Shown one piece after another: positions 7,094 to 51,618 of a stretch of DNA of 64,000 nucleotides. Within the stretch, counting starts at the first letter, position 1. Every line of letters starts with the position of its first letter. The stretch is from an uncultured virus (IMG/VR IMGVR_UViG_3300020048_000028) (lineage: Duplodnaviria > Heunggongvirae > Uroviricota > Caudoviricetes): the IMG/VR virus record IMGVR_UViG_3300020048_000028; one strand, given 5' to 3'. The notes under the pieces are model-generated. The model searched no databases. It saw nothing but the letters and a program-made list of their open reading frames with translations, and was not told the origin of the DNA. Position numbers and translations under genes: made by a program.

Positions 7094-7189
7094 ATGACAA
7101 AAGAAGTAGTTATCACGGCTTTATTAGCATCAGTATTAACAGTTGTTATGCTTGTTGCAAAAGAAAAATTTATTGACAAAACAGCTTAA
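7094..7189 (+). CDS. 31-aa single-TM protein (not in ORF track)
   Basis: MTKEVVITALLASVLTVVMLVAKEKFIDKTA; A-rich leader; first ORF after the promoters. Confidence 0.65.
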   Translation: MTKEVVITALLASVLTVVMLVAKEKFIDKTA

Positions 7190-7324
7190 TAGCTTATTCA
7201 ATAAAAAAAAAGACATGAGCAAGTCTTAAAAATGTTTACTTATTGATAACGATTACGTCCTATGCGTTATTAATATTTTATGAAATTATAGTGGCAAAAA
7301 AAACAAACTTAAAAATTAAGTAAA

Positions 7325-8134
7325 ATGCAAAACGCAATGAACATTGACCGTTACATTAATATGGCGGAAGAAAATTTTTCAGGTATGGATGGATATTCTC
7401 CATTTCCTGAAGGCACTTTAGACCTTTCTATGGAAGGCGAATATGGTGCAGATGGTGATTATTACTATGCTGATGGTAATAACGAAATGGGAACGAGTTA
7501 TTCTTATGCAAACGCTGCACCTATGGCTGCTCCTCGTCCTGTACCTGCAAAACAACCAACTCCGTACCAAGTAAACGTAACTAACACAACTCCAAATCCT
7601 TTGACAGTTGTATTATTTGGTTTAAACACTTATTTATTAACTCCTAACTTCGGAACTTCTGTTGGTGTTATCGTAACTCCTGCTCAAGTAAACGTAAGTT
7701 ATTTAGAGTTATTAAATCAATCTGCAAGTCAACCGTTTGAAACTTCGTTAATTCGTATTCAAACTTCAAGCCCTTCTCAGTTGACTCAAATCTTAACTGT
7801 TACAAGTAAAGATGCAAACGGGCAATTATGTCAAATTCCAATCATCACACAATCGTATTTTTCTGCAAATCAGTTTCAGTCTACGATTTTAGATGTTCCG
7901 TATCCTGTTAAAATTGATGGAAACACTTATGTGTCTTTCTCAATCTTAGGAAACACGACTGCGACATATACATTCTTCCCATCTGAGAAAATCAATCAAT
8001 CTCGTATCTTGGGTAATGGTAGTTCTTTACAACAATACTCTGCTCCTGCTGTACCTGTGGCTGTGCCAATGTTCTCAGCTCGTCCAATCGGTATCCGTAG
8101 ATTGCCTACTATGATTAATCCTGCAAGACGATAA
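7325..8134 (+). CDS. putative major capsid protein (beta-rich, jelly-roll-like; inferred)
   Basis: Near the start of the operon and followed by a strong terminator; alternating hydrophobic beta pattern; KDANG/NQFQS core shared with 3 paralogues; acidic N-arm with xADG repeats. Confidence 0.55.
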   Translation: MQNAMNIDRYINMAEENFSGMDGYSPFPEGTLDLSMEGEYGADGDYYYADGNNEMGTSYSYANAAPMAAPRPVPAKQPTPYQVNVTNTTPNPLTVVLFGLNTYLLTPNFGTSVGVIVTPAQVNVSYLELLNQSASQPFETSLIRIQTSSPSQLTQILTVTSKDANGQLCQIPIITQSYFSANQFQSTILDVPYPVKIDGNTYVSFSILGNTTATYTFFPSEKINQSRILGNGSSLQQYSAPAVPVAVPMFSARPIGIRRLPTMINPARR

Positions 8135-8152
8135 TTTGTCTTTCAATTAGCT

Positions 8153-8190
8153 AAAATGGGCAGGTAATATTTTGCCTGCCCATTTTTTTT
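8153..8190 (+). terminator. intrinsic terminator
   Basis: AAAATGGGCAGGTAA-loop-TTGCCTGCCCATTTT followed by a T run. Confidence 0.85.
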
Positions 8191-8250
8191 AATTAAAAAA
8201 TAATTATTGAACTTGAATAGTCAAACGAAATTGAAATTAATATAAATAAG

Positions 8251-8850
8251 ATGGAAATTAACACTATAAGATATGTATTTGAAAGCAATAAACCCGATTT
8301 AAGAAGGTTAGTTGTAAAATACGGATTACCTCCTGCAAAAAATGAACAGGATTTGTGGAAGAAAACAAATTACCTTGTTGCAAAGTTTAAGAAAGAAATG
8401 CTTAAAGATATTGCCTATATCCATCCCGATAGAGAGCTTATTCTTTGGTCTACTTCTGACAATAATCAAAGCAACGATACTAAAGAAAAAGAAACTAAAG
8501 TTGTTGGTAAAAATTCAAGAGCAGATGGCGAAAGTGAAGAACAGTCTAACTGTAACGGAAACCCTAATTGTAATTGTGGCTCAGTAGTTAAAGAAACAAA
8601 GTCTAACTGTAACGGAAACCCTAACTGTAATTGCGGTTCAGGAGAAGTGAAGTCAAATGTTGTTTCAGCACAACCAACTCAACCACAACAACCACAACCT
8701 CAACAAGCACCTCAAGCACAACCTGCTCAGGAAAAAGTTGCAGACGGAAGTTTTCAAGAAACTTTAAAAAATAATATGCCATTAGTAATTGTTGGTTCTC
8801 TACTTTTAGTAGGTGGATTAATATTCTTTGGAAACCGTAGAATGTCTTAA
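8251..8850 (+). CDS. C-terminally anchored membrane protein with SNCNGNPNCNCGS x2
   Basis: C-terminal TM plus basic tail; Cys repeat; Q/P linker. Confidence 0.7.
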   Translation: MEINTIRYVFESNKPDLRRLVVKYGLPPAKNEQDLWKKTNYLVAKFKKEMLKDIAYIHPDRELILWSTSDNNQSNDTKEKETKVVGKNSRADGESEEQSNCNGNPNCNCGSVVKETKSNCNGNPNCNCGSGEVKSNVVSAQPTQPQQPQPQQAPQAQPAQEKVADGSFQETLKNNMPLVIVGSLLLVGGLIFFGNRRMS

Positions 8851-8853
8851 CAG

Positions 8854-11128: not shown

Positions 11129-12433
11129 ATGTCATCAACAACAACAACAACTAAAAGTAAAGCTGAATTAGATTTAGAAAAAAAGAAATCAGATGAGGCT
11201 TATTACGGAGGAACTCTTGGTGGTTCTAAAGGCGATTATGCTAAGGACAATCTTTGGATGTTAAAAGACGATTTGTTTACATTGACTCCAAAAGGTACTA
11301 AGCCTTCAAGGACAATGGAAAAAGTTGATGGCGATAAGCTTTTGTCAGAAGGTGATAAAATTGAAGGGGTAATAGTATATTTTTTGCCAAAAGATAAAAG
11401 CGGAAAATTGGTTGGAACTCCTAAAAGATATTTACATATTTGGAAAGGCGGAAGAACTAATAAGTTTATTGATGCTGAAAAGGTAGTGCCTTATTATCAA
11501 GATATTTTAAATAATAAATCTAAATGGATTTCATCAGGAGGTTCTGATTTAGTTGAGAAAGCTCAACAAAAATTAGGTGTTACTTCATCAGAATCTATTG
11601 CTTCTAATTTTACAGCACTTGATGATATTAATTCTCAAATGAATAATTATGGATTTAATTCTGATATAGATTTATCTAACATGAATGGACTTGATGATAG
11701 TATTTTAAATTCTATTGGTAAGTCTGAGCCTACATCTAATTATGTAGGTAATAGAGGTTATGTAGGTAATAAAAATGCTCCATTTGTAGGTAATAGAAAC
11801 GCTCCGTATAATGGAGGCAGAACGTCTAACATGATAAATGAAAATTTATTAGATGGACTAACTGAAAACACAAGACTTTTAAGTGCTGATGGAGAAGATG
11901 AAGATGAAGAATCTAACATGATAAATGAAAGTTTATTAGATGGACTAACTGAAAACACAACCCTTTTAAGTGCTGATGGAGAAGATGAAGATGAAGAAGT
12001 ATCTAATGCTTTTGGAGATTGGTTTAAAGGCTTAATTGATAAAAATAAGGAAAAACGAGATAAGCGTGCTTTAGCGAAACTATCAGACCCTAACGTTGAT
12101 ATTGTTGAGGCTGCTGATATGAGTAAAGCTTATAAAGAGAGTGGTTCTAAAAAACCTCTTAGAGATTGGATTAATTCTGATAGCGGTAAAAGTATAATAA
12201 GTACTGCTGCTCAATTAGCAAGTCTTTTTCTAAAAGGTCAAGCACAAGCTTCTGCTCCTACAACAAATAATCAAGATAATAAAGATAACCAAGATAATCA
12301 AGATAATAATAATAATAATACGCCATCAGAAACAACTATATTAGGCATGAGTCCTGTAACATTTGGTATAGTCGCTTTTGGGTTAGTTATTGTTAGCTCT
12401 ATTGTAGCTGTTAAACTTTTTAAATCTAAATAA
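11129..12433 (+). CDS. tail-anchored virion-type membrane protein (ILGM family)
   Basis: Internal DLSNMNGLDDS; 29-aa tandem repeat; C-terminal TILGMSP plus TM. Confidence 0.7.
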   Translation: MSSTTTTTKSKAELDLEKKKSDEAYYGGTLGGSKGDYAKDNLWMLKDDLFTLTPKGTKPSRTMEKVDGDKLLSEGDKIEGVIVYFLPKDKSGKLVGTPKRYLHIWKGGRTNKFIDAEKVVPYYQDILNNKSKWISSGGSDLVEKAQQKLGVTSSESIASNFTALDDINSQMNNYGFNSDIDLSNMNGLDDSILNSIGKSEPTSNYVGNRGYVGNKNAPFVGNRNAPYNGGRTSNMINENLLDGLTENTRLLSADGEDEDEESNMINESLLDGLTENTTLLSADGEDEDEEVSNAFGDWFKGLIDKNKEKRDKRALAKLSDPNVDIVEAADMSKAYKESGSKKPLRDWINSDSGKSIISTAAQLASLFLKGQAQASAPTTNNQDNKDNQDNQDNNNNNTPSETTILGMSPVTFGIVAFGLVIVSSIVAVKLFKSK

Positions 12434-13465
12434 ATGAAATTAGACTTGACAAATGCAAATAATTTAGATGTATCTCCATTCGTGGATAGGTATTCTAATA
12501 TTATAAGACTTACTGAAGCGGTTGCTCCTCCTCCGAGAGTAATCACTCAATTAGCTCCAAAAACAACATTATTGGCATCTGAAACTATTGTTCCAAAACC
12601 AAGAGTCGCACCTGCACCTGTAATACCAAGAGTTTCACCTGCACCTGCACCTGCACCTGTACCTACTACTTCTGCTGTTCCACCAAGAGGTACGACACTT
12701 CCAATGGAAACTATTGTGCCTATTACGCCACCGAGAAGTGTTAGTACAATAAATACATTTGCACCAACGGAAACTATTGTTCCTATTACACCAAGAAATG
12801 TTGTTCCGACAGGAACACTTTCGTCAGTTCCTCCAAGAACTATTGTGTTTGCTACTGCTCCTACATTAGAAAATATACCTACTTTTTTCACACCTATTAT
12901 AGTGCCTTCTACTGTGCCTACAACTTCAATTACTTCTCCAATTCCCGTTAATGCTCCTGCTAATGCTCCTATGGGTGGTGGCGGTGGTGGTGATATGGGT
13001 GGCGGAGGAGGTGGCGGTGGTGCTATGGGTGGTGGCGGAGGTGGCGGTGGTGCTGAAGAAGGTGCTGAACAAGGTGCTGAACAAGGTGCTGAACAAGGTG
13101 CTGCCGAACAAGGTGCTGCTGCTGAACAGGGTGCTGCTCAAGGTCAATTACAGCGAGTGGTGGTAATTAAGAAAAAATCATATATTGGTATTTTAGGTTT
13201 ATTACTTGGCGGAGCAGGTGGATATTTTTATGCTAAAAATAATAATAAAAATTTAATTGCATTTTCTTTAATAGGTTCTGCTATTGGTATAGCTGTGGCA
13301 TTGTTAATTGAAAATATGAAAGATAAACAAGTACCTCAAGTAGTACCTCAACCTCAACAAATACCACAAGCTAAACAAGTTCAACAAATACCACAAGCTC
13401 AACAAGTACAAGCTCAACAAGGTCAGGAAGAAGAAATTCAACTTGAGGAAGCTGCTCAACAATAA
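12434..13465 (+). CDS. Pro/Thr-rich mucin-like, Gly-rich, 2-TM protein
   Basis: P/T repeats, poly-G, GAEQ repeats, hairpin TM, Q-rich tail. Confidence 0.7.
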   Translation: MKLDLTNANNLDVSPFVDRYSNIIRLTEAVAPPPRVITQLAPKTTLLASETIVPKPRVAPAPVIPRVSPAPAPAPVPTTSAVPPRGTTLPMETIVPITPPRSVSTINTFAPTETIVPITPRNVVPTGTLSSVPPRTIVFATAPTLENIPTFFTPIIVPSTVPTTSITSPIPVNAPANAPMGGGGGGDMGGGGGGGGAMGGGGGGGGAEEGAEQGAEQGAEQGAAEQGAAAEQGAAQGQLQRVVVIKKKSYIGILGLLLGGAGGYFYAKNNNKNLIAFSLIGSAIGIAVALLIENMKDKQVPQVVPQPQQIPQAKQVQQIPQAQQVQAQQGQEEEIQLEEAAQQ

Positions 13466-13504
13466 ACTAAATAATAAGATATAATAAATTAAATAAATAA
13501 AATT

Positions 13505-14572: not shown

Positions 14573-14583
14573 TAAATTAAAAT

Positions 14584-15252: not shown

Positions 15253-15326
15253 TAAAAAGACAACAACAAAAAATAAGACAACAAATAAAAATAAATAATA
15301 AACCAACCAACCAAAAAAGACAAATT

Positions 15327-15875: not shown

Positions 15876-15887
15876 AAACACAATACA

Positions 15888-16454: not shown

Positions 16455-16459
16455 AAAAT

Positions 16460-16780: not shown

Positions 16781-16806
16781 TTAAATAATAAATAANNNNN
16801 NNNNNA

Positions 16807-42166: not shown

Positions 42167-42188
42167 AATTTTAATTTAAGTAATAGTA

Positions 42189-42992: not shown

Positions 42993-43010
42993 ACAATAAT
43001 TAAATAAAAA

Positions 43011-46000
43011 ATGTCAGAATTAAATAGCTTTGGATGGACAAGTAGTGGTTCAGGTGGAGGTGGCGGTGCAAATGCCGTTATATTATTAGGTGGTGGAACA
43101 GGTAGTTCTTATCGTTGTGGGAATGGTAATATCGCATTTGGCGATTATTCAACTATTAGTGGTGGTTATGGAAATACATCATCGGGATATAATTCAACAA
43201 TAAGTGGTGGGTACAATAATACTGCATCTCAATATGGCTCAACAATAGGAGGTGGTCGTCAAAATACTGCCTCAGCATATTATTCAAAAATAGGAGGTGG
43301 TCGTCAAAATACAGCATTAGGTTGTTTTTCAGCGATAGGAGGTGGTTTTCAGAATACTTCAACAGGTATTTATTCAACAATAAGCGGAGGTTATAATAAT
43401 ATATCATTAGGATTTTCATCATCAATAAGCGGAGGTTATAATAATTTAGCATCGGGCTGCGAATCTACAATAGCAGGTGGTCGTCAAAATACAGCATCAT
43501 CATATAGTGCAACAGTAGGTGGAGGTAGAGGAAATACGGCTTCAGGTCAATATTCAACAGTTGGTGGAGGTTGTTTAAATACAGCATCAAGTGTATATTC
43601 GGCAATTAGTGGAGGAAATAATAATACAATTAATCCATTCGCTACTTGTTCACGCAACATTTATGGAAATGTAATTGGAGGAGGTACTCATAACATTATA
43701 AACTCAAATAGTGCTTATTACGGAGATGCAGGTGGAGTTACAATAAGTGGAGGAGCTAATAATACTACTAATTCAGATTATTATGGTTTTAATACTATTG
43801 GTGGTGGTCTTGGAAATATTGCTTCTTGTGATTATTCAACAATAGGTGGTGGTTATACTAATACAGCATCAAATTGCATTTCAACAGTAAGTGGAGGTTA
43901 TCGTAATACAGCATCGGGTGGTTATTCGGTAGTTGGTGGTGGTCGTTTTAATACGGCATCATTTTATTCTTCAACAGTAGGGGGTGGTTATGGTAATACC
44001 TCATCAAATCGTTATTCAACAATTAGTGGAGGTTATTGTAATACAGCATCAGGTGGTTATTCGGTAGTTGGTGGTGGTCGGTTAAATTCAGCTTCATGTA
44101 ATTATTCAACAGTTGGTGGAGGTCATCAAAATTCAGCGTCACAAAATAATTCAACAGTAAGCGGTGGTTATTGTAATACCGCTTCAAGTTGTTCTTCAAC
44201 AATAAGTGGTGGTTATAATAATTTAGCACAAGGTTTTTATTCTTCTATCGGAGGTGGTCAATGTAATAACGCTTGTAATTCATTAAGTGGTTGTTATTCA
44301 GTAGGTTCAACAATTTCAGGTGGTATTGGAAATAATACAGCAGGTGGAACTTGGGATTCTGTAAATAATTGTTTTTCAGTAGCACCAACAATTTGCAACG
44401 CAGGTATATTTTCAAGTATTGGTGGTGGTTTTCAAAATGTAGCATCAGGTTGTTATTCAACCGTTGGTGGTGGTATTTGTAATACTGCATTAGGTTGTTT
44501 TTCATCAGTAGGCGGAGGTTTAGGAAATACAGCATCATGTTGTTTTTCAACAGTAGGTAGTGGTTGGTGCAATACAGCTTCATGTTATGGTTCAACAGTA
44601 GGTGGTGGTAGTTTTAACACAGCATCAAATTATTATTCAGTTGTAGGTGGAGGCACTTTAAATATAGCATCAGAATATGCTGCAACCATAAGTGGTGGTC
44701 GTTTCAATACAGCTTCAGGTAGTCGCTCTACAATAAGTGGTGGGTATAAAAATACATCATCAGGTTATTATTCAACAGTAGGTGGTGGTCGTTGCAATAC
44801 AGCATCAAGTAACTATTCATTAATAGGTGGAGGAAATAATAATACAATTAATCCATTCGCTACTTGTGCAGGTTATTTAGTTTGTGGAAATTCAATCGGT
44901 GGTGGTTCTAATAACATTATAAATTCAAATAGTGCAGATTATGCAAACGCAGGTGGCGTTACCATAGGTGGTGGAGCTAATAATACTACTAACTCGAATT
45001 ATTTCGGATTTAATACAATTTCAGGAGGTATTGGAAATATTGCTTCTTCTGATTATTCAACAATAGGTGGAGGAACGTCTAATACGGCATCGGGTTATCT
45101 TTCAACAATAGGTGGTGGTATTTCAAATACAGCAGGATGTTATTCAACAGTAAGTGGTGGTAATAATAATACGGCATCATCTGATTATTCAACAATAGGT
45201 GGTGGTAATAATAATATAGCTTCAGGTCTAAGTTCACCCACAGTAGGTGGAGGTTTTTGTAATATTGCATCGGGCATTCGTTCAACGGTTAGTGGAGGTA
45301 CTTTAAATACAGCATCATGTTATACTTCAACTGTAAGCGGTGGTTACAAAAATATAGCTTCGGGATATGGCTCTGCCGTTCTTGGAGGATTCAATAACAT
45401 TGCATCGGGTTGTTATTCGGGTGCTTTTGGTTGTAATTTAACAGCAAGTTGTAATTATACTTTTTACACAAATAATCATTGTGCTTGTGGTAGTTTATAT
45501 ACTTCAACAATAGCTTCGGGTTGTGGAGTTTGTGCGACTACGGGAGGTCAGCTCGTTGGATATAGTATTATTCCTACTACAAGTTTTGGGTTATATGCTC
45601 AAACAGCTTTAGGTACAGCTATAACAAATACAATAGTTCAAACTTCTTTAATTGGAACAGGTGTTGGAACTTTAACTGTTCCTGCAAATGGTTTTCAAGT
45701 AGGAGATAGTTTTACTGTAAAAATGTGTGGACTTTTAAATTGTGCAAATAATGAAGGAATACGAATTAGAGTACTATCTAATGGAATCGTAATAGCTGAC
45801 GCAGGTGTTTTTTTGATGAAATTAGCTACAAATAAATATTTTGAATTAATATTAGATTTTACTGTAACTAAGTTAGGTGGAGCAGGGGTTGCTGAATTAT
45901 TTGTAAATGGACAGTATAGTTACAATCAAAATGCAAATACGAATTTAGATGGAGTCAATTTTGCATTAATAAGTAATACAACTTTTACTACATTAGTTTC

Positions 46001-46091
46001 TAATACTTTAACAATTACTGCTCAATGGTCTAATGCCCTTGCGGCTAATTTAATACAATCACAAAACTTTATTTTACAAAAAGTTTATTAA
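43011..46091 (+). CDS. Gly/Cys-rich beta-solenoid spike/fibre protein, paralogue of 36362
   Basis: Same MSELNSFGWTSSGSGGGG start; 14-aa repeats; different C-terminal domain. Confidence 0.75.
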   Translation: MSELNSFGWTSSGSGGGGGANAVILLGGGTGSSYRCGNGNIAFGDYSTISGGYGNTSSGYNSTISGGYNNTASQYGSTIGGGRQNTASAYYSKIGGGRQNTALGCFSAIGGGFQNTSTGIYSTISGGYNNISLGFSSSISGGYNNLASGCESTIAGGRQNTASSYSATVGGGRGNTASGQYSTVGGGCLNTASSVYSAISGGNNNTINPFATCSRNIYGNVIGGGTHNIINSNSAYYGDAGGVTISGGANNTTNSDYYGFNTIGGGLGNIASCDYSTIGGGYTNTASNCISTVSGGYRNTASGGYSVVGGGRFNTASFYSSTVGGGYGNTSSNRYSTISGGYCNTASGGYSVVGGGRLNSASCNYSTVGGGHQNSASQNNSTVSGGYCNTASSCSSTISGGYNNLAQGFYSSIGGGQCNNACNSLSGCYSVGSTISGGIGNNTAGGTWDSVNNCFSVAPTICNAGIFSSIGGGFQNVASGCYSTVGGGICNTALGCFSSVGGGLGNTASCCFSTVGSGWCNTASCYGSTVGGGSFNTASNYYSVVGGGTLNIASEYAATISGGRFNTASGSRSTISGGYKNTSSGYYSTVGGGRCNTASSNYSLIGGGNNNTINPFATCAGYLVCGNSIGGGSNNIINSNSADYANAGGVTIGGGANNTTNSNYFGFNTISGGIGNIASSDYSTIGGGTSNTASGYLSTIGGGISNTAGCYSTVSGGNNNTASSDYSTIGGGNNNIASGLSSPTVGGGFCNIASGIRSTVSGGTLNTASCYTSTVSGGYKNIASGYGSAVLGGFNNIASGCYSGAFGCNLTASCNYTFYTNNHCACGSLYTSTIASGCGVCATTGGQLVGYSIIPTTSFGLYAQTALGTAITNTIVQTSLIGTGVGTLTVPANGFQVGDSFTVKMCGLLNCANNEGIRIRVLSNGIVIADAGVFLMKLATNKYFELILDFTVTKLGGAGVAELFVNGQYSYNQNANTNLDGVNFALISNTTFTTLVSNTLTITAQWSNALAANLIQSQNFILQKVY

Positions 46092-46231: not shown

Positions 46232-46618
46232 ATGGATTTGTCAGCTAATCAAGAAACTCTAACAATTAAAAAGTTAGAAAGTCATTTAATAAAAACAATT
46301 ATAGGAGCTTTGGCAGTAGGTATAGTTGGAGCTTTTTTTACATCATTTGCGTTTTATTATAATAGCGGCAATAGGTTTAAGAACCTTGAGCAGAGTAAGA
46401 TTGAAACTAAAATTGAAATGAAAGAGTTAAAAGACAATGTAGAGGGCATTAAATATGATGTTGGGGAGATAAAGACCTCTCTTTCAAATACAGGTATTTA
46501 TACTACCGATAATAAAGAAAGAATTAGTACCTTAGAGCAGGATGTTAAAGAGATAAAAGAATCCCAAGTAGAGATGATTAAAATTCTTTACGAACTCAAG
46601 GCAAGAAGAACTAAATAA
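46232..46618 (+). CDS. TM plus coiled-coil protein (holin/antiholin-like)
   Basis: One TM then heptads; TATTTTTG element at 46150-46157. Confidence 0.55.
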   Translation: MDLSANQETLTIKKLESHLIKTIIGALAVGIVGAFFTSFAFYYNSGNRFKNLEQSKIETKIEMKELKDNVEGIKYDVGEIKTSLSNTGIYTTDNKERISTLEQDVKEIKESQVEMIKILYELKARRTK

Positions 46619-46635
46619 TTTAAAGACATAATGAT

Positions 46636-46836
46636 ATGATGAATTTTAAAAGCGGAGCTGAATTAGTGAACGCTGCAAAGGAAATAAACGGAGAAATGAA
46701 AGCAGGTAAAATATTTGAAGTAGTTGTTGGAGCTGCATTGCTTGGATTAAGTATATATGCTTTTGCTTTGTCTATTAAAGCTAATAAAATGGCTATAAAG
46801 AAAATGGAGCAAGAAGCCAAAGATGGATTAAAATAA
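46636..46836 (+). CDS. small single-TM protein
   Basis: VVVGAALLGLSIYAFALSI. Confidence 0.6.
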   Translation: MMNFKSGAELVNAAKEINGEMKAGKIFEVVVGAALLGLSIYAFALSIKANKMAIKKMEQEAKDGLK

Positions 46837-46839
46837 AAA

Positions 46840-47469
46840 ATGAAGCCTCAAGTTAAAAATCTATTATTGGGATTAGCCATTGGCTTTTCTTTATTTGGGG
46901 TAGGTTTATTTATTTTAAACAGAAAAAAATCAACAAAAAAAATAAATTCAATTCTTTTTATAGGCGATAGTAATACGTTTGCTAATTTTAGTTATGCAGA
47001 CCAATTAAAAAAAATATTTCCTAACCTATTAATTAAAAAAATAGCTAAGAACGGTGCTAATACTCAATGGATGAGTGAGCAGTTAAGAGATGAGTTGAAA
47101 AAATATAAGCATGATGTCGTTGCTATTCTTGGAGGAAGTAATGATATATATGGCTCAGGTAAAATAGATGGAGCTAAAAAGAATTTAGATGAGATGTATA
47201 GCTTTGCACATACAGTTGGCTCTAAAGTTATTGCTATAACTCCTCCTAATAAAGATTTTTACGAAAATAAAACTGATGCTAAACAAAATCTTTTATCTGA
47301 ATTAGTAGATTGGATTATGTCAAATAAAAAAGCAGATTATAAAATTGATTTTCACAAAATTACAAATGATAAATCTTTTTTTAGTAAAGCAGATGGATAT
47401 TTACATCCACAATCTAATGCTCATAAGTTATTAGCAGATGAAACAAAAGAACAACTAAATTTAGCATAA
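46840..47469 (+). CDS. membrane-anchored SGNH/GDSL hydrolase
   Basis: FIGDS, G, GGSND, DGYLHP blocks; N-terminal TM. Confidence 0.85.
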   Translation: MKPQVKNLLLGLAIGFSLFGVGLFILNRKKSTKKINSILFIGDSNTFANFSYADQLKKIFPNLLIKKIAKNGANTQWMSEQLRDELKKYKHDVVAILGGSNDIYGSGKIDGAKKNLDEMYSFAHTVGSKVIAITPPNKDFYENKTDAKQNLLSELVDWIMSNKKADYKIDFHKITNDKSFFSKADGYLHPQSNAHKLLADETKEQLNLA

Positions 47470-48215
47470 TGTATAATATTAAAGATTCAATAGATAAGGC
47501 ATATAATTTTATTCAAGGTTTAAGAGCTAAGGGTTATAAGTATTTAGGAACTCCTGTGTATAACGTTACTAAAGCTGATTTATCAAAATTAGCTAATGTT
47601 GCTGCTAAATATGATATTCCTGTCGAATGGCTTTTCAACCTGATAAAACATGAGTCGGCTAACACATTTTCGCCTGCAATTACAAATAGTATTGGAGCAA
47701 CAGGTATTATTCAATTTATGACAAAAATTGGAGGAAAAACTATGACTTATGCTAAGGCTGATGGTAGTGATGCTGTTACAACAAGTGAATTAAGGAAAAT
47801 GTCTTTCTCTGAACAGTTAGATTATTTAGACGGTTACTTAAAAAGAAATCTTAAAAAGCATTTAACTCCTGAAGGAAAAATACCTGAAACCTTTACGCAA
47901 GGTGATATTTTTATGACTATTTTTTATCCTGTTTCAGTAGGTAAGCCTGATTATCAATTTCCCGATTCTGTTAGTAGGGCAAATGCAGGAATTAGAAAGC
48001 CTTTAGATTATGTCGAAAAGGCTTTAAAAAATTCAGTTTTTCCTTTAAGTGTCGTGCCTTACTCTTTGGCAGATGTAAAAAAAAAATTCGGACAGGCTTA
48101 TGAATACGGAGAAGTTGTAGTTAAAAGAAATTGGATTCCGATTGTTATAATTGGTTTAGGTTTAGCAGGATTAACTTATTATGGAATTAAAACGGGAAAA
48201 TTTAAGTTTAAGTAA
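47469..48215 (+). CDS. lysozyme-like transglycosylase with C-terminal TM
   Basis: HESA.TFSP...GATGIIQF...EQLDY. Confidence 0.75.
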   Translation: MYNIKDSIDKAYNFIQGLRAKGYKYLGTPVYNVTKADLSKLANVAAKYDIPVEWLFNLIKHESANTFSPAITNSIGATGIIQFMTKIGGKTMTYAKADGSDAVTTSELRKMSFSEQLDYLDGYLKRNLKKHLTPEGKIPETFTQGDIFMTIFYPVSVGKPDYQFPDSVSRANAGIRKPLDYVEKALKNSVFPLSVVPYSLADVKKKFGQAYEYGEVVVKRNWIPIVIIGLGLAGLTYYGIKTGKFKFK

Positions 48216-48218
48216 TTA

Positions 48219-48905
48219 ATGAAAAATAGAGATAAATGGATTATTGCAGGAATGATAGGTGCTACACTTATCACTTTGTCATGGATATACCGTTCAACTA
48301 TTAAGAAAGGGATAAAGAAAGGAATAACATCTGTAACGGATTTTGTTGACTCTTTACGAAATACTGCATTAAGTGAATATGATTTTTGGAAAAGTGGTTC
48401 TATTAAAGAGGGGAATCCTGCTACTATGGAGCGACTTCGTAAATATTGGAAAGAAGGTGCAGGAGTTACTAATTGGAGCGATGATAGAATGACTGATGAA
48501 GCTTGGTCAGCAGCTTTTATTTCATACATAATGAAAAAATCAGGTGCAGGTAGTGATTGGAAGTATTCGCCCTCTCACTCAACCTATATTGTAGATTCAA
48601 TTAAAAATAGAAAAGAAAATAATAGCAATCCATTTAAAGGTTATAAACCCGAAGAAGTTAAACTTGAGGTAGGTGATTTAGTTGGTAAGGCAAGACAAAG
48701 TGGCGTTGATTATGATACTAAAGGTAATTATAAATCTCATACAGACGTTGTAGTTAATATAAAAGATGGTATAGCTGATACGATTGGAGGAAATGTTTCT
48801 AATTCTGTATATTTAACTAAAGTTCCTCTTAATGCAAGTGGTAAAATAGATAATTCAAAAGTAAGTGGAGATAAATATTTTGTTGTAATTAAAAATAAGA
48901 AATAA
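48219..48905 (+). CDS. DUF2272/CHAP-like peptidoglycan hydrolase with N-terminal TM
   Basis: AWSAAFISY, HSTYI, GDLV, SHTDVV, IGGNVSNSV. Confidence 0.75.
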   Translation: MKNRDKWIIAGMIGATLITLSWIYRSTIKKGIKKGITSVTDFVDSLRNTALSEYDFWKSGSIKEGNPATMERLRKYWKEGAGVTNWSDDRMTDEAWSAAFISYIMKKSGAGSDWKYSPSHSTYIVDSIKNRKENNSNPFKGYKPEEVKLEVGDLVGKARQSGVDYDTKGNYKSHTDVVVNIKDGIADTIGGNVSNSVYLTKVPLNASGKIDNSKVSGDKYFVVIKNKK

Positions 48906-49408
48906 TGGAAGATAAAATAACATTAGAAAGAATTAAAACACTTCACCCTAAATTGCGTGATGAAGCTGCTGAAATTTATAAAGAAATACAAGAAGCTTTA
49001 AAAGGTAGAGCTATTTGTAGGTTTTCTCATACATTAAGAACTTTTGAAGAACAAAATGCTTTGTATGCTCAAGGAAGAACTACTAAAGGTGCTATTGTTA
49101 CAAATGCAAAAGGAGGTCAGTCTATGCACAACTATGGTATGGCGATTGACATTGTTTTATTAGTAGATAAAGATAAAAACGGAACTTTTGAATCAGCAAG
49201 TTGGGAAACTAATGTGGATTTTGATGGTGATGGCGTACATGATTGGATTGAGATTGTAAAGATATTCAAAACTTATGGTTGGGAATGGGGAGGAGATTGG
49301 CGTTTTGTTGATAAACCTCATTTTCAAAAAACATTTGGTAAGTCTGTGAAAGATTTACAGGCACTATGCAATAATAAAAAAGTTGTAAACGGATATGTGG
49401 TTATTTAA
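48905..49408 (+). CDS. endolysin, M15 L-Ala-D-Glu peptidase
   Basis: RTxxEQxxLYAQGRT, SxHNYGxAxD, WGGDW, DxPH. Confidence 0.9.
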   Translation: MEDKITLERIKTLHPKLRDEAAEIYKEIQEALKGRAICRFSHTLRTFEEQNALYAQGRTTKGAIVTNAKGGQSMHNYGMAIDIVLLVDKDKNGTFESASWETNVDFDGDGVHDWIEIVKIFKTYGWEWGGDWRFVDKPHFQKTFGKSVKDLQALCNNKKVVNGYVVI

Positions 49409-49419
49409 AAACTAAACAA

Positions 49420-49566
49420 ATGAACGATAGCGAAAGATTCGACAAAATAGAAAAACAATTAAAAAGTTTAGAAACGGATTCTAAAATACATTTAGCTATT
49501 GTTATATTTAGCTTTATTGGAGTTTTATCACTTCGTTCTTTAATTAAAGATTTAAAAAATATATAA
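49420..49566 (+). CDS. 48-aa single-TM protein (not in ORF track)
   Basis: MNDSERFDKIEKQLKSLETDSKIHLAIVIFSFIGVLSLRSLIKDLKNI. Confidence 0.55.
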   Translation: MNDSERFDKIEKQLKSLETDSKIHLAIVIFSFIGVLSLRSLIKDLKNI

Positions 49567-49576
49567 AAAAATAGAT

Positions 49577-49903
49577 ATGATAGAGTTATTATTTTCGGGC
49601 ATAGAGCCAATTCACTTCGTACTTGCTTATGCAGGTATGTTATTACACATATTGTTAAAAGTAGCTGACTTAAATCAGAATCCTGATTTTAAAATAAAAA
49701 GCTATATTAAGAAAAATATATACACAATAGTTGCTACATTCATTATGATACCAATTATGCTTATTGTTTTAACGGATACGAGTTTGGGTGAGATATTGCC
49801 AATTAATAAAGTAACGGCAGTACTTTCAGGTTATCAAACGCAATCTGTATTTAAAACAATAATGAATATGTTTAGTAGTAGAGTTAAAACAACTGAAAGT
49901 TAA
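49577..49903 (+). CDS. putative holin
   Basis: 108 aa, 2-3 TM, next to the endolysin. Confidence 0.55.
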   Translation: MIELLFSGIEPIHFVLAYAGMLLHILLKVADLNQNPDFKIKSYIKKNIYTIVATFIMIPIMLIVLTDTSLGEILPINKVTAVLSGYQTQSVFKTIMNMFSSRVKTTES

Positions 49904-49949
49904 AATAATTTAAAAAAATAATTTAAAAAAATAATTTAAAAAAATAAAC

Positions 49950-50069
49950 ATGAGAAATTCAAATATTAATTTTTTAGAAACAGTAGCAATAAAAGCATCA
50001 GTAGCATTTGGTTTATCTGTTATTTATATTTCAAATAAATTAAACTTAAAATACTTTGTTAAAAAATAG
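49950..50069 (+). CDS. 39-aa hydrophobic protein (not in ORF track)
   Basis: MRNSNINFLETVAIKASVAFGLSVIYISNKLNLKYFVKK; abuts the next ATG. Confidence 0.4.
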   Translation: MRNSNINFLETVAIKASVAFGLSVIYISNKLNLKYFVKK

Positions 50070-50303
50070 ATGAAAATAAATAATCAATTATTAAAAGGAT
50101 TGGCAATAGGTTTAGGCATAGTTGGAATGTTTGTACTCGCTTCATTTTTATATAAAAAGAAAAATGTAAAAAGTAGTGGAGGTAATTCAAATAATTCAAA
50201 TGAATCTGAGGGCAAGAGTATAATTATAGGCTCTGTAAAAGACCCTCACTCAAACTTACCAATATATAAAGAAATTGGAAAAGAGATTGATGAAAAGTTA
50301 TGA
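50070..50303 (+). CDS. small N-terminal TM protein
   Basis: GLAIGLGIVGMFVLASFLYKKK. Confidence 0.6.
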   Translation: MKINNQLLKGLAIGLGIVGMFVLASFLYKKKNVKSSGGNSNNSNESEGKSIIIGSVKDPHSNLPIYKEIGKEIDEKL

Positions 50304-50962
50304 TAAAAAAATACAAATATTATATAGGTGGATTTATTGCATTAGCGGCAGTAGTAGGACTTGTTGTGTATAAAAGAAAAAAAACGGATGTTATTAAAGA
50401 TGATTTTAAATTGGGTAATACTATTACAAAATTAGGAGATTTGATATTTTCAGTACCATTAAATAAATTTGATGAGTACCCTGTGGTTATTGTATTTGGA
50501 GGAATATCATACGCTAATCCTGCTTGGATAATGAAAGAGGTAGAAAAAGAATTGCTTTCAAAAGCGATATTTGTTTTTGCTCCTTACACTATGAGTTACG
50601 ATTCATTAACTCCAAAGTTAAATGATTTTATTGCTAAAAATAAATTGCTTGTAAAAAACATATCGGTAATAGGTTTTTCAGCAGGAGGACTTAATGTTCA
50701 AAAAGCTTATAATAAAAACTTTAAATTCATAGGACTTATAGACCCTTCTACTCGTTCAGAAAATGTAAAAAAAGACTATGGCGATAATGTGAAGATGGTT
50801 TATAATGATGCAAATTGGGGAGGTTATCCTCAAATAAAATCAGTTTTACCTAATTTAGCAAATGCGATAAATAAATTAGGTGGTGATGCAGAAAAAGTTA
50901 ATTTACAACATTCTAAAATTCCAAGTTATTTTTTTAACAAATACAAAAACGATATAGCATAA
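50300..50962 (+). CDS. membrane-anchored alpha/beta hydrolase
   Basis: YPVVIVFGG, GFSAGG nucleophile elbow, C-terminal His; N-terminal TM. Confidence 0.7.
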   Translation: MIKKYKYYIGGFIALAAVVGLVVYKRKKTDVIKDDFKLGNTITKLGDLIFSVPLNKFDEYPVVIVFGGISYANPAWIMKEVEKELLSKAIFVFAPYTMSYDSLTPKLNDFIAKNKLLVKNISVIGFSAGGLNVQKAYNKNFKFIGLIDPSTRSENVKKDYGDNVKMVYNDANWGGYPQIKSVLPNLANAINKLGGDAEKVNLQHSKIPSYFFNKYKNDIA

Positions 50963-51618
50963 TGAAAAATAAAGATAAAATATACATATCGGCAATTATA
51001 ATAATAATTGCTGTTTTCTTTTTAAGAGAGGGCTGTAATAGAATGGATACTAACAAGCTTGTTTCTGATATTACAAGTTATAAAACCGAATCTGAAACTT
51101 ATAAAACAAAACTTGGATTGGAAATAAATACCAATAAAGCTTTGGCATTACAAACTCAAGACCAAATGAAATCGTTATTGGCAAGTAATGATACTATGCG
51201 AGAATGGATGAAAGAGTTTAAGAAAATAAAAGCAGGAGTTATTATAAAAGAAACTACTATAATAAAAGAGGTTGCTGTCCCATTCGATAGAAATATTCCT
51301 TGTGATTTTAAACCGTTTCCTGCTAAAAAAGAAACTAAAGACTTTCAGTTTTATGCTACCGTAGCAAATACGGGATTAACATTAGATAGTTTGAAAGTTC
51401 CTAATGAATCTAAGATAGTGATAGGAGATAAGCGTAAAGGTTTCTTAAATTTGAAAAGTGAATTAACTGTTGATGTAAACAATTCTAATCCGTATATAAA
51501 AACTTCAAACATAAGCGGTTTTGTATATGAGCCTAAAAAGAAATGGTATGAGAAAATGTGGGTAAATTTTGTCTTTGGATTAGGCGTAGGATATGTAGGC
51601 GGTACGTTGACAAAATAA
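50962..51618 (+). CDS. spanin-like protein (hydrophobic segments at both ends)
   Basis: N-terminal signal ending in GC, coiled coil plus beta region, C-terminal KKWYEK+TM. Confidence 0.45.
   Translation: MKNKDKIYISAIIIIIAVFFLREGCNRMDTNKLVSDITSYKTESETYKTKLGLEINTNKALALQTQDQMKSLLASNDTMREWMKEFKKIKAGVIIKETTIIKEVAVPFDRNIPCDFKPFPAKKETKDFQFYATVANTGLTLDSLKVPNESKIVIGDKRKGFLNLKSELTVDVNNSNPYIKTSNISGFVYEPKKKWYEKMWVNFVFGLGVGYVGGTLTK

Follow-up and report, generated by a model that had tools for sequence, protein, structure and literature searches.

Genes of a putative undescribed family of very large, tailless and lipid-lined viruses of Bacteroidota

We analysed a stretch of viral DNA of 64,000 nucleotides (the window; genes are named below by their first coordinate). 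The window most likely represents the late module, encoding virion and lysis functions, of a large dsDNA virus with a Bacteroidota-type host. Its gene content and that of its relatives suggest that the virus is probably tailless and contains an internal membrane, with jelly-roll capsid proteins and an FtsK/HerA-type packaging ATPase. Our literature search found this lineage described nowhere.

Results

The features of the window are listed in Table 1. The sequence-only reading had proposed a co-oriented morphogenesis block in a genome larger than 64 kb, and both points held; each of its suggested checks that was run gave a favourable outcome. Nearly all long ORFs are on the plus strand from 7325 to the window end; the block therefore passes 51618 and reaches at least 64000. 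A protein identical to 7325 is recorded on a 153,097-bp contig, the one to which the window belongs, and the genomes of the lineage range from about 109 kb to at least 375 kb. The syntenic relative G005:C48 is a closed circular genome of 109 kb (127-bp end overlap) and carries a plasmid-type Rep_3 initiator, ParB and a tyrosine integrase. A second relative is a 375-kb contig with 33 tRNAs, and the relatives G001 and G002 are fragmentary. Two relatives are found in a viral-contig collection. Viral traits of the lineage include tRNAs (33 and 11), homing endonucleases, polyvalent-protein domains, RNA-repair enzymes, endolysins and fibre modules. Of the four metagenome-assembled genomes (MAGs) in which relatives occur, three have Bacteroidota, Bacteroidia or Bacteroidales in their titles, and a Shine-Dalgarno-like core occurs in only 2 of 82 leaders (12% background), the leaders being 57% A. 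The MAG titles, the missing Shine-Dalgarno motifs and the A-rich leaders all support a Bacteroidota host.

Table 1. Features of the window, with strand and type of evidence.
Feature	Coordinates	Strand	Evidence
ADP-ribosyltransferase, 'polyvalent protein' type	1315..1818	+	Pfam ART-PolyVal E 3.7e-12
Glycan and sulfation gene set	1818..6525	.	Pfam and PHROG matches
HTH_3 regulator	6541-6750	-	Pfam HTH_3 E 1.2e-9
Divergent intergenic region, 575 bp, before late block	within 6541..7324	.	Motif scan
Conserved single jelly-roll protein, first late-block gene	7325-8134	+	AF2, Foldseek, VIA, profile
Two core single-pass membrane proteins	8251-8850, 8854-9678	+	TM segments; in all 5 genomes
Nine mostly tail-anchored proteins in a run	11129..18662	+	Translations, TM scan, motif scan
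Soluble 'cargo-like' proteins	18707-21976 (1089 aa), 22384-24171 (595 aa)	+	Motif counts, C-terminal HMM
Small ORF among cargo-like genes	21976-22338	+	
Two more tail-anchored membrane proteins, 17346 family	24214..26143	+	
Core 277-aa protein, conserved HE[FY]SH motif	26147-26980	+	In all 5 genomes
Second jelly-roll paralogue	26990-27682	+	7325-family profile E 4e-7
Two further proteins with the common C-terminal domain	28115-29671, 29697-30149	+	C-terminal domain HMM
Small membrane protein cluster	30175..36340	+	TM scan; includes SLT 33489-34151, LEA_2-like 35115-35645
Variable spike and fibre cluster	36362..46091	+	PHROG matches, tblastn
Envelope-attack and lysis cluster	46232..51618	+	Pfam, PHROG, TM scan; small TM proteins included
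Block continuation past 51618	51635..64000	+	Pfam, PHROG, 7325-family profile
Two beta-propeller and jelly-roll proteins	57247-58956, 58964-60853	+	7325-family profile

Upstream of the block, the ADP-ribosyltransferase has homologues in the relatives G001 and C16 and is likely an injected or anti-defence effector. The glycan and sulfation set comprises GT2 glycosyltransferases, a sulfotransferase, a cytidylyltransferase-like protein, an APS kinase, a DUF2061 protein and an Anp1-like glycosyltransferase (5821-6525). The latter gene is divergent from 7325, and its family is present in all five genomes, each time no more than about 2.5 kb from the 7325 orthologue. The intergenic region ahead of 7325 contains two TAnnTTTG motifs, at 7002 and 7047, and may serve as a promoter.

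The beta-rich gene singled out earlier as a capsid candidate with paralogues indeed has a jelly-roll fold. In the AF2 model of 7325, a disordered N-terminal arm is followed by an eight-stranded jelly roll (residues ~75-240). The structural matches are weak, and the best ones are mostly viral capsid and penton proteins: in Foldseek the top rows are capsid proteins of picornavirus, STMV and CPMV (E ~1e-3), and VIA placed the PR772 penton P31 at the top (Z 6.1 and rmsd 3.2 over 98 aligned residues), in a tie with CBMs, lectins, nucleoplasmin-type and other jelly rolls. None of the 351 homologues of 7325 has a name, and the family profile matches 977 cluster representatives at 50% identity. The orthologues in G001 and C16 are 59-66% identical, and the gene always comes first in the block. 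For the paralogue 26990, which is also related by sequence, the orthologous position in G001 and C16 follows the homologue of 26147; in relatives, this type of protein is fused behind a beta-propeller. The profile further matches the C-terminal parts of 57247 and 58964 (E ~1e-7), which are candidates for vertex spikes. A 699-aa protein contains 3-4 tandem copies of the jelly-roll domain, which also turns up in many other settings; such a distribution would suit an adhesin or lectin module no less than a capsid protein. We identified no capsid protein of the double jelly-roll type. The best candidate for a major capsid or vertex protein is 7325.

Membrane proteins are abundant in the block. In a Kyte-Doolittle scan (19-residue window, mean at least 1.6), 34 of the 53 plus-strand ORFs of at least 50 residues in 7094-51700 had at least one transmembrane (TM) segment, compared with 1 of 14 upstream (window positions 1-7094). 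Two of the 34 calls are probably false (33489 and 43011), and the count leaves out three ORFs that are borderline or were outside the scan (16460, 34183 and 48219). The anchors are N-terminal in 18 proteins, C-terminal in 11 and internal in 5, and most are flanked by Lys/Arg runs, in keeping with the more than 30 ORFs with TM helices near Lys runs reported from the sequence. The syntenic block is likewise enriched in all four relatives (block versus rest: 35/65 versus 13/72, 26/47 versus 9-12%, 27/45 versus 17/139 and 36/54 versus 25/200), so the enrichment is not due to chance. The core proteins 8251 and 8854 come after the jelly-roll gene in every relative. Proteins in the 11129..18662 run have charged or amphipathic helical ectodomains, followed by an 'ILGMPK'-like motif and a C-terminal TM segment; 17346 has weak Pfam matches to apolipophorin and perilipin, indicative of amphipathic helices. 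An acidic 'LD.SN..GLDES'-type motif is common to six proteins in the window and is N-terminal in five of them. Two other core membrane proteins are the LEA_2-like 35115 (Pfam LEA_2 E 3.3e-6), whose family is present in all five genomes, and 50962 in the lysis cluster.

The soluble proteins in 18707..24171 contain recurring aromatic-x-x-G-G-x-V/I motifs and share a ~50-aa domain at the extreme C-terminus, detected by an HMM. The motif occurs 13 times in 18707 and 6 times in 22384, about 10-12 per 1000 residues versus 1.4 per 1000 in the whole window, and five times in 28115. The 26147 family shows 50-71% identity and keeps the HE[FY]SH motif in four of the five aligned sequences. No match to PDB sequences was found for 26147, and the Atlas offered no more than a lead, to DUF4344 metallopeptidase, though with a high score. 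It is possible that 26147 is a zinc metallopeptidase and a candidate maturation protease.

The spike-like proteins noted earlier, 36362, 39258, 42189, 43011 and 52633, turned out to be repeat or fibre proteins. The 36362..46091 cluster contains Gly-rich repeat proteins (36362 and 43011), a small adaptor-like protein (38914), and a triple-repeat protein (39258) with a short paralogue (42189). PHROG matches of 38914, 39258 and 42189 are at the domain level, to C-terminal modules of virion and tail-fibre proteins, and tblastn of 39258 found Flavobacterium phage FL-1 and rhizobial phages (28-45% identity). The cluster has no homologues in G001 or C16, as expected of host-range genes. Membrane anchoring of the wall hydrolases was seen for the GDSL esterase 46840 (N-terminal TM) and the SLT-like 47469 (C-terminal TM); the DUF2272 protein 48219 has a weak hydrophobic stretch at its N-terminus, and no convincing anchor was found in the SLT lytic transglycosylase 33489 (Pfam SLT E 9.5e-9) or the M15 peptidase 48905. 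Beyond 51618, the block holds the fibre proteins 51635 and 52633 and leucine-rich-repeat-like paralogues (61761-64000), interspersed with a GT9-like gene, a homing endonuclease and a sulfotransferase.

Pfam and PHROGs confirmed that recognisable tailed-phage genes are lacking: none of the 81 ORFs in the window matched a terminase, portal, HK97 capsid, tube, sheath or baseplate, and tape-measure matches were limited to weak coiled-coil ones on 17346. The proposed search for terminase, portal and HK97 genes versus an FtsK-HerA ATPase was run on syntenic relatives, where the hallmarks are absent and the ATPase is present. HMM searches may overlook very divergent terminase, portal or HK97 genes; within that limit, no hallmark was found in the closed G005:C48 (PHROGs, 144 of 148 ORFs of at least 75 aa; Pfam, 126 ORFs, including four spanning locus borders) or the 375-kb contig (Pfam, 221 of 224 ORFs of at least 170 aa; PHROGs, 147 of those). 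Six-frame searches of the lineage contigs with PF03237 and PF03354 gave no terminase signal.

The ATPase is a conserved 278-aa protein in three of five relatives (39-43% identity); none was found in the fragmentary G001 and G002. Among its 214 homologues, the HerA central domain (PF01935) is present in 24 of the 120 listed. Its confident AF2 model (pLDDT 90.7) is closest to B204, the NTPase that packages the genome of STIV, a tailless, membrane-containing archaeal virus. Foldseek PDB ranks 1-14 are all STIV or STIV2 B204 except rank 6 (Zot), with E down to 2e-7, and VIA aligned 186 of the 204 B204 residues (Z 18.2, rmsd 2.4), ahead of DndH-C (17.1) and HerA (16.7). BFVD matches include A32-type ATPases of medusavirus, mimivirus and poxvirus, as well as Sputnik V3, mavirus, adintovirus, a corticovirus NTPase and the ATPase of the sphaerolipovirus Haloarcula virus PH1; row 31 is Bacillus phage G gp155. 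Terminases are absent among the top 50 of both the Foldseek PDB and BFVD lists. The sole 'terminase' match, phrog_2666 (E ~3e-5), falls on this ATPase and was rejected on its B204-like, not terminase-like, structure. The ATPase and its neighbours were seen in relatives only, 16-43 kb upstream of the 7325 orthologue, and would thus lie outside the window. A jelly-roll paralogue directly adjoins it in the order X - jelly roll - ATPase (C16 and two metagenome loci).

Discussion

These data suggest a model for assembly. Dozens of single-pass viral membrane proteins, many tail-anchored and with the common acidic N-terminal motif, would enter the host cytoplasmic membrane. Jelly-roll proteins may then build a shell around the protein-loaded lipid patch, the candidates being the 7325 family, the second paralogue beside the ATPase in relatives and the 26990 type, while beta-propeller and jelly-roll fusions and repeat fibres would form the vertex spikes. 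The small FtsK/HerA-type ATPase, whose gene in relatives lies upstream of the window's counterpart together with a conserved partner gene, could pump the genome into a preformed membrane-lined procapsid, as PRD1 P9, STIV B204 and NCLDV A32 do. Soluble proteins with the common C-terminal domain, a putative cargo tag, may be co-packaged; in relatives they would include a topoisomerase IB. Membrane-anchored transglycosylases, esterases and peptidases would open the cell wall when the virus enters and leaves.

In size, and in having tRNA arrays, polyvalent proteins and numerous homing endonucleases, the genomes are like those of tailed jumbo phages (Caudoviricetes); several of the fibre proteins have matches among tail-fibre PHROGs, and some tailed phages own HerA-like ATPases, such as gp155 of the jumbo phage G. 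The virus could be such a phage, with hallmark genes that have diverged too far, or are too interrupted by introns and homing endonucleases, to be recognised, and with a membrane-protein block that serves lysis, superinfection exclusion or host-membrane remodelling. Pfam often misses jumbo-phage capsid and portal genes. However, TerL is normally detected more readily than any other tailed-phage gene, and two HMM libraries and six-frame searches gave no terminase signal in the closed 109-kb genome or the 375-kb relative, the only 'terminase' PHROG match being the B204-like ATPase. Sheath, tube, baseplate and portal matches are zero, and no stop-codon recoding hides long ORFs. We consider a tailed phage unlikely.

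It is similarly improbable that a tailless jelly-roll virus with FtsK/HerA packaging uses its TM proteins outside an internal virion membrane, as assembly-site scaffolds, holin-like lysis or entry-exclusion proteins, or that the particle has an envelope or is pleomorphic instead of being an icosahedron with a membrane inside. The virion location is deduced from gene position, individual TM proteins are not tied to the particle, and 46232-51618 resembles a lysis cassette. Nevertheless, TM-rich genes are interleaved with jelly-roll, spike and cargo-like genes in one co-oriented block in all five genomes, and to our knowledge an internal membrane is a feature of the characterised viruses whose packaging relies on a B204/P9/A32-type ATPase. 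We regard as very unlikely a megaplasmid or integrative element in which small membrane proteins, lytic transglycosylases, adhesin-like fibres and a HerA/VirB4-like ATPase form a novel envelope-spanning secretion or transfer apparatus. Rep_3, ParB and the integrase in the closed relative would suit such an element, as would VirB4 and HerA among the structural neighbours of the ATPase (Z 14-17), and conjugative elements also carry polyvalent proteins. On the other hand, no VirB4-, VirD4- or relaxase-type family appeared in any Pfam scan, and B204 ranks above VirB4 and aligns over nearly its full length. Traits typical of viruses are the tRNA arrays, the dozens of homing endonucleases, the endolysins and the phage fibre modules, and two relatives are in the viral-contig collection.

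The preferred reading, for which the relatives supply the strongest evidence, is a tailless virus with an internal membrane, whose particles seem to be lipid-lined like those of PRD1 and PM2. Those are tiny phages, however, and the genomes of the present lineage are at least ten times as large. The lineage is most likely an undescribed family of very large bacterial viruses that is environmentally widespread and distinct from tailed phages.

Late block and its membrane proteins

From the 7325 gene to the window end, the genes form a single co-oriented block on the + strand, in sequence of 27-37% GC. Pfam and PHROGs gave few matches across the 81 window ORFs, and none to a terminase, portal, HK97 capsid, tube, sheath or baseplate; tape-measure matches were limited to weak coiled-coil ones on ORF 17346. 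At the DNA level, the window had no match to GenBank phages (megablast, 20 kb). ORFs 7325, 26147 and 18707 had no tblastn match in 50,697 GenBank phage records, and matches to known GenBank phages were limited to fibre and accessory genes. Two stretches of the window had no exact copy in the viral and metagenome collections scanned.

A hydropathy scan found a transmembrane (TM) segment in 34 of the 53 + strand ORFs of at least 50 aa at 7094-51700, compared with 1 of 14 upstream; the count probably includes two false positives and lacks three ORFs that were borderline or not scanned. The anchors are N-terminal (18), C-terminal (11) or internal (5), usually with Lys/Arg at their borders. The sequence-only reading had described the block as rich in membrane proteins, and these counts bear it out. 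The enrichment extends to the syntenic blocks of the relatives (35/65, 26/47, 27/45 and 36/54, versus 9-18% elsewhere). In terms of coding potential, TM proteins make up 54-67% of the block genes in all five genomes.

Paralogous families among the window translations include tail-anchored proteins, soluble proteins, Gly-rich repeat fibres and the jelly-roll family. The tail-anchored proteins end in an 'ILGMPK'-like motif followed by the TM segment. An acidic 'LD.SN..GLDES'-type motif occurs in six window proteins and is N-terminal in five. Four soluble proteins have a ~50-aa domain in common at the extreme C-terminus, and three of them carry 13, 6 and 5 copies of an aromatic-x-x-G-G-x-V/I motif.

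The ~50-aa domain ('..YP.Q.VG..KL.KCF.RPYYK..') is always found at the extreme C-terminus of otherwise unrelated proteins, four each in the window, the related contig G001 and the 375-kb relative C16, one of the C16 proteins being a topoisomerase IB. We speculate that it is a virion-addressing tag. The Gly-Gly motif is present in 5-13 copies per protein, at 6-12 per 1000 aa versus 0.2-1.4 in whole proteomes. Its carriers are cargo-like and polyvalent proteins, including the giant ones of the relatives, where it often lies at apparent domain borders. Adenovirus and ASFV polyprotein proteases cut at Gly-Gly-X sites, which the window motif recalls, and a role as a processing site is our speculation. 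No Ulp1/adenain-like protease was detected.

Several other features of the window were noted. Reading TGA or TAG as sense gave no gain in frames of at least 300 aa, and stop-codon recoding was rejected as the cause of the short ORFs. The sequence TAnnTTTG was tried as a promoter motif and has 8 of its 49 + strand copies in the 5% of sequence that is intergenic, too weak to use. Two runs of exactly 10 N are present. The 78 bases ahead of the first run exactly repeat an upstream stretch, so that two ORFs have their first 26 residues in common; rather than a true duplication, this is probably a scaffold join or an artefact of assembly at a repeat. At the window end, three tandem paralogues with an identical N-terminal region contain leucine-rich-repeat-like units, 'GNLT.IGG.A.F..S.V..L'.

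Coordinates, locations and sizes of features in the window and its relatives
Sequence	Feature	Coordinates, location or size	Remarks
Window	First late-block gene	7325-8134	
Window	Anp1-like glycosyltransferase gene	5821-6525	minus strand; divergent from 7325-8134
Window	Glycosyltransferases, sulfotransferases, APS kinase, ART-PolyVal domain	upstream of block	Pfam/PHROGs
Window	Two SLT domains, GDSL esterase, DUF2272, M15 peptidase, homing endonuclease	inside block	Pfam/PHROGs
Window	A few proteins with domain-level matches to fibre or virion-protein families	inside block	Pfam/PHROGs
Window	Shared C-terminal domain	21830-21976, 24025-24171, 29515-29671, 29960-30149	
Window	Gly-Gly-motif proteins	18707-21976, 22384-24171, 28115-29671	
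C16	Gly-Gly-motif proteins	85392-90332, 58384-62883	
C48	Gly-Gly-motif protein	38415-41015	
C16	Protein with the shared C-terminal domain	57442-58383	
Window	tRNA-Cys(ACA) call (ARAGORN)	19632-19712	inside ORF 18707-21976; rejected, most likely a false positive
Window	Runs of exactly 10 N	10058-10067, 16796-16805	
Window	Upstream copy of the 78-base repeat	9741-9818	
Window	ORFs with the same first 26 residues	9741-9956, 9980-10675	
Window	Three tandem paralogues	61761-64000	
G001	Related contig	97 kb	from viral collection
G002	Related contig	102 kb	partly read
G003:C16	Related contig	375,071 bp	
G004:C131	Related contig	148.5 kb	
G005:C48	Related contig	109,203 bp	exact 127-bp overlap of ends
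C16	33 clustered tRNAs, Met-/His-tRNA synthetase fragments, RNA-repair and NAD salvage genes, Macro, PARG and ART domains	247-272 kb, 260-372 kb	
C48	Examples of plasmid-type, methyltransferase and defence genes	86963-87982, 75468-76268, 20848-21612, 74471-75367	L056-L061
G004:C170	Jelly-roll protein	9101-10939	L043
C16	Homologue of the gene adjoining the C170 jelly roll	319085-320230	phrog_2087
G001	P-loop protein	71817-72491	rejected as ATPase orthologue

Relatives and host

Five related contigs were read. C16 has a uniform GC content of 31%, ~624 mostly short ORFs and 33 tRNAs, features of a virus-like genome rather than of a host chromosome. C48 is a closed circle, since its ends overlap and the late block runs across them. 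The prediction that the genome exceeds 64 kb agrees with these sizes (109,203 bp closed and 375,071 bp) and with an identical 7325 protein recorded on a contig of 153,097 bp.

The late block is syntenic in all relatives. The 7325 orthologue comes first and is followed by two membrane proteins; the block also holds a HE[FY]SH protein of the 26147 type, then a jelly-roll gene, an SLT protein and a LEA_2-like protein. ORF 26147 had no match to the PDB by sequence or profile. In the ESM Atlas it fell into its own unnamed viral clusters, with one lead, at a score of 0.88, to a metallopeptidase family.

The larger relatives carry further gene sets. Besides its clustered tRNAs, C16 encodes RNA-repair enzymes (RtcB, two RNA ligases and a CCA-adding or poly(A) polymerase-like enzyme), NAD salvage enzymes (NAPRTase and PRPP synthetase) and Macro, PARG and ART domains, which together look like a large translation-repair and anti-defence toolkit. 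C48 has a Rep_3 plasmid initiator, a tyrosine integrase, ParB and a TnpB/IS605 element, along with a CAP12/Pycsar-type TIR effector and seven or more genes for DNA methyltransferases. Such a set is suggestive of a temperate, phage-plasmid-like virus that carries defence genes of its own, and Rep_3, ParB and the integrase suggest episomal replication by host enzymes, which we propose as the reason for the missing polymerase. A contig of 41% GC from the same MAG as C131, C170, encodes a jelly-roll protein next to a homologue of a C16 gene, as well as several further lineage genes; C170 looks like another, more distantly related member of the group alongside C131.

Three of the four MAG titles that go with relatives are of Bacteroidota type. 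Shine-Dalgarno cores are present in 2 of 82 leaders, versus a 12% background, and the leaders are 57% A. Bacteroidia ribosomes are described as not using Shine-Dalgarno pairing (PMC9976891). The MAG titles, scarce Shine-Dalgarno cores and A-rich leaders fit a Bacteroidota host.

The jelly-roll family

ORF 7325 has 351 homologues, none of them named, on contigs of up to 237,926 bp. A profile of 38 family members matched 977 cluster representatives at E<=1e-3 out of 1.84 billion. The AlphaFold model (mean pLDDT 66, core ~75-92) is an eight-stranded jelly roll preceded by a disordered N-terminal arm. The best Foldseek rows were picornavirus VP3, STMV and comovirus capsid proteins, none at E<=1e-3. 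In a wide VIA search the first match was the PR772 penton P31 (Z 6.1, rmsd 3.2, 98 aligned residues); the capsid proteins of FLiP (Z 5.2), phiCjT23 (Z 5.0), PBCV-1 and faustovirus came near Z 5, tied with carbohydrate-binding modules. A second-look structure list gave similar matches, and the ESM Atlas gave scores of up to 0.84 and no named family. The sequence-only reading had taken 7325 as a beta-rich candidate capsid gene; its model is a jelly roll, with fold matches that are weak and generic. We regard the predicted jelly-roll fold as secure, and from conservation and position we infer a capsid role.

ORF 26990 is also matched by the family profile, as are the beta-propeller proteins 57247 and 58964 in their C-terminal parts. 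Every genome, the closed one included, has at least two conserved jelly-roll types, 7325-like and 26990-like; tandem copies and other settings of the domain are seen as well. In the five genomes only single jelly-roll proteins were recognised and no double jelly-roll protein. Among other family members, P0123, P0132, P0133, P0136, P0142, P0143, P0167 and others contain two or three jelly-roll stretches in 313-574 aa; tandem duplication may have given rise to double jelly-roll forms here.

In all five genomes an Anp1-like glycosyltransferase is encoded within ~2.5 kb of the 7325-type jelly-roll gene. More glycosyl- and sulfotransferases and a PAPS-synthesis kinase lie near the window copy. In chloroviruses the capsid protein is glycosylated by viral enzymes, and the arrangement here hints, by analogy, that the capsid protein may be glycosylated or sulfated by viral enzymes.

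The predicted packaging ATPase and its neighbours

A Walker A scan of C16 picked out a protein of 278 aa, with orthologues in C48 (43% identity) and C131 (39%) and none seen in the fragments G001 and G002. In the relatives the 7325 orthologue follows 16-43 kb downstream of this gene, which would place the ATPase gene outside the window. The first family hints were DUF87/HerA (E 3e-4), Zot and a terminase-labelled PHROG (E 4.5e-5), and against the PDB, sequence and profile searches gave weak HerA matches (E 0.002-0.08). The protein has 214 homologues, with PF01935 in 24 of the 120 listed. Several longest-contig sizes are equal in the 7325 and ATPase family lists (237,926, 84,245, 82,912 and 42,803 bp), which suggests that the two genes co-occur.

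In the relatives, the ATPase is a single-domain P-loop protein with Walker A and B motifs, and its 278 aa lie within the ~200-300 aa of FtsK/HerA-superfamily packaging ATPases. All 43 aligned sequences keep the GK at 18-19 in GTKGVGKT and the ED at 123-124 that comes after a hydrophobic strand. The model built from this alignment has a pLDDT of 90.7. Among its Foldseek PDB matches, the rows listed at ranks 1-14, except rank 6 (Zot), are B204, the NTPase that packages the genome of STIV and STIV2 (E down to 2e-7), followed by RecA, HerA and VirB4, with no terminase in the top 50. VIA likewise placed B204 highest (Z 18.2, rmsd 2.4, 186/204 residues), above DndH-C (17.1), HerA (16.7), VirB4 (14.9) and RecA (~13), at a sequence identity of just 13-16%. 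In BFVD the best named matches were the A32-type packaging ATPases of medusavirus, mimivirus and poxvirus, and Sputnik V3; the mavirus FtsK-HerA ATPase, a corticovirus NTPase, an adintovirus FtsK-like protein and the Haloarcula virus PH1 ATPase (TM 0.54/0.61) were also found. Among P-loop NTPases, terminases included, the predicted fold is therefore nearest to the viral packaging ATPases.

The ATPase gene is always preceded by X, which encodes a conserved, mostly disordered protein. In C16 and two metagenome loci, a jelly-roll paralogue lies between X and the ATPase. The sequence-only reading had set an FtsK-HerA/A32 ATPase against the packaging genes of tailed phages, and an ATPase of the B204/A32 type was found in the relatives, paired with a jelly-roll gene in C16 and the two metagenome loci. 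Two other candidates were rejected. The P-loop protein of G001 has only the Walker A region in common with the ATPase, and X, considered as a capsid protein, is mostly of low complexity with a helical core of ~140 aa.

Searches for tailed-phage genes

In C16, Pfam (221 of 224 ORFs of at least 170 aa) and PHROGs (the 147 ORFs without a clear Pfam name) revealed no terminase, portal, capsid, tail or DNA polymerase gene. The same held for C48, where PHROGs covered 144 of 148 ORFs of at least 75 aa and Pfam covered 126, a set that includes four border-crossing ORFs and leaves out 22 smaller ones. These C48 searches do show the Rep_3 initiator, ParB, the tyrosine integrase, many DNA methyltransferases and wall hydrolases. 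Six-frame searches with PF03237 and PF03354 found no terminase on the lineage contigs; a weak Terminase_6N match in G004 was dropped, as it lies on a contig of 48% GC without homology to the lineage. In the window, C48 and C16 there is no recognisable TerL, at the level of HMMs that a very divergent TerL could escape, and no Pfam or PHROG match to a portal, HK97-fold capsid, tail tube, sheath or baseplate.

Comparison with known viruses

The lineage resembles Sphaerolipoviridae, Simuloviridae and Matsushitaviridae in its single jelly-roll proteins, of which there are at least two paralogous types here, its small FtsK/HerA ATPase, with the PH1 ATPase among the best BFVD matches, its many membrane proteins, and the episomal or temperate lifestyle suggested by the plasmid-type genes of C48. 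Family descriptions put genomes at 16-19 kb in Simuloviridae and ~30 kbp in Sphaerolipoviridae; in both, the capsid proteins are single jelly rolls and the virion has an inner membrane. The lineage spans 109 to >375 kb, whereas the three families span ~16-31 kb, and its predicted hosts are Bacteroidota-type bacteria rather than haloarchaea and Thermus. In the VIA lists the 7325 model has no specific match to Sphaerolipoviridae-type capsid proteins, and no sequence similarity to the three families is detectable. No tRNA arrays or polyvalent proteins are known from these families.

With Tectiviridae (PRD1, PR772 and Bam35) the lineage would have in common a tailless membrane design, many small virion membrane proteins, virion-associated lytic transglycosylases and a P9-type packaging ATPase. 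In tectiviruses the P31 vertex protein and the P5 spike have a common jelly-roll module, and a similar sharing between vertex and spike is predicted here; the best VIA match of 7325 is P31. PRD1 has a linear genome of ~15 kb and a protein-primed PolB. In contrast to the linear tectiviral genomes with inverted terminal repeats and protein-primed PolB, C48 is circular with a Rep_3 initiator, and Pfam scans of the relatives, including C16 and C48, found no PolB. No protein like the double jelly-roll P3 was identified in the lineage. Turriviridae (STIV and STIV2) provide in B204 the closest solved structure to the ATPase, but have archaeal hosts, a double jelly-roll capsid protein and genomes of <20 kb.

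Corticoviridae (PM2), Autolykiviridae and Finnlakeviridae are aquatic, tailless, membrane-containing bacterial viruses, the design proposed for the lineage. FLiP and phiCjT23 of the Finnlakeviridae infect Flavobacterium, and their capsid proteins are among the jelly-roll matches of 7325; a corticovirus NTPase is among those of the ATPase. The lineage is an order of magnitude larger than PM2- and FLiP-type viruses. Surveyed prokaryotic double jelly-roll viruses are given as ~7-18 kb with FtsK-HerA ATPases, and FLiP-group genomes as ssDNA of up to ~17 kb (PMC5894146).

Nucleocytoviricota resemble the lineage in the A32-type packaging ATPase, genomes of hundreds of kb, topoisomerase IB, glycosyltransferases of their own encoded next to the capsid gene (in the lineage, the candidate one), and tRNA and aminoacyl-tRNA synthetase fragments. 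Many viral TM proteins are another common trait, together with the internal membrane proposed for the lineage. Unlike them, the lineage has a bacterial host, as indicated by peptidoglycan hydrolases, the Shine-Dalgarno and leader features and the Bacteroidota MAGs, and Pfam scans of C16 and C48 found no NCLDV-type capsid, PolB, RNA polymerase or VLTF3.

Moraphages, which are jumbo tailed phages, are described from aquatic metagenomes with a predicted Bacteroidota host, genomes of 200-307 kb and DnaJ-like genes, placed by trees of TerL, HK97-type MCP and PolB (PMC12619734). The lineage is similar in its freshwater and other aquatic metagenomes, predicted host, genome size and DnaJ-like genes. 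However, moraphages carry TerL, MCP and PolB, none of which is detectable here, and are therefore a different lineage. In the main text of the literature searched, no bacterial virus >100 kb was described as having jelly-roll capsids or FtsK/HerA packaging.

Interpretation

A tailless virus with FtsK/HerA packaging and a membrane-lined jelly-roll shell accounts for the findings most economically, the ATPase module having been seen only in the relatives. The ATPase would package DNA into a jelly-roll shell lined by a membrane full of viral proteins. Fusions of beta-propellers and jelly rolls, together with repeat fibres, would form the spikes, and wall-degrading enzymes would be anchored in the membrane. 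On this reading the lineage would have the known tailless, membrane-lined FtsK/HerA design at a genome size at least ten times larger, with an unclassified jelly-roll capsid family.

That the lineage is instead a very divergent tailed phage seems unlikely to us. HMMs can miss divergent tailed-phage genes; yet the sequence-only reading recognised no terminase, portal, HK97 or tail genes, and HMM scans likewise found none in the window or in C48 and C16, while the ATPase model of the relatives matches B204. Equally improbable, in our estimate, is a tailless virus with TM proteins that do not belong to the virion; the TM genes are interleaved with the jelly-roll genes in one co-oriented late block in all five genomes. 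A non-viral element, which the plasmid-type genes of C48 might recall, is very improbable beside the virus-like character of C16 and an ATPase model that matches B204 better than VirB4.

Going beyond the tailless, membrane-lined reading, we tentatively suggest, at somewhat less than an even chance, a new high-rank lineage of giant tailless membrane-lined bacterial viruses with a new jelly-roll capsid family, tagged cargo and plasmid-like episomes. Its gigantism would be independent of that of eukaryotic giant viruses and derive from small PRD1-/sphaerolipovirus-like ancestors. The capsid family would be a new single jelly-roll family, with tandem repeats in some relatives, and its members would still show living steps on the way from single to double jelly-roll capsids. 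Enzymes would be packaged for delivery, directed to the particle by the shared C-terminal domain, and cleavage at Gly-Gly sites might free them from polyproteins.

Large bacterial viruses have so far been treated as tailed by definition, and jumbo phages are described as tailed phages (PMC12619734). Where viruses of bacteria or archaea are known to combine an inner membrane and FtsK/HerA packaging with jelly-roll capsids, they are small, with single jelly-roll families of up to ~30 kb. A tailless lineage of 109 to >375 kb, if true, would break both assumptions. Its extent is indicated by the 977 jelly-roll cluster representatives and 214 ATPase homologues. Virus discovery based on TerL, MCP and portal markers would miss or mislabel such genomes; bacterial MAG bins hold three of the four carrier contigs, and automatic atlas labels assign relatives to the tailed-phage phylum. 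The lineage offers testable material on the scale-up of lipid-lined capsids, the evolution of single and double jelly rolls and the delivery of protein cargo. If the reading is true, genome gigantism in a tailless membrane architecture arose in bacteria as well as in eukaryotes.
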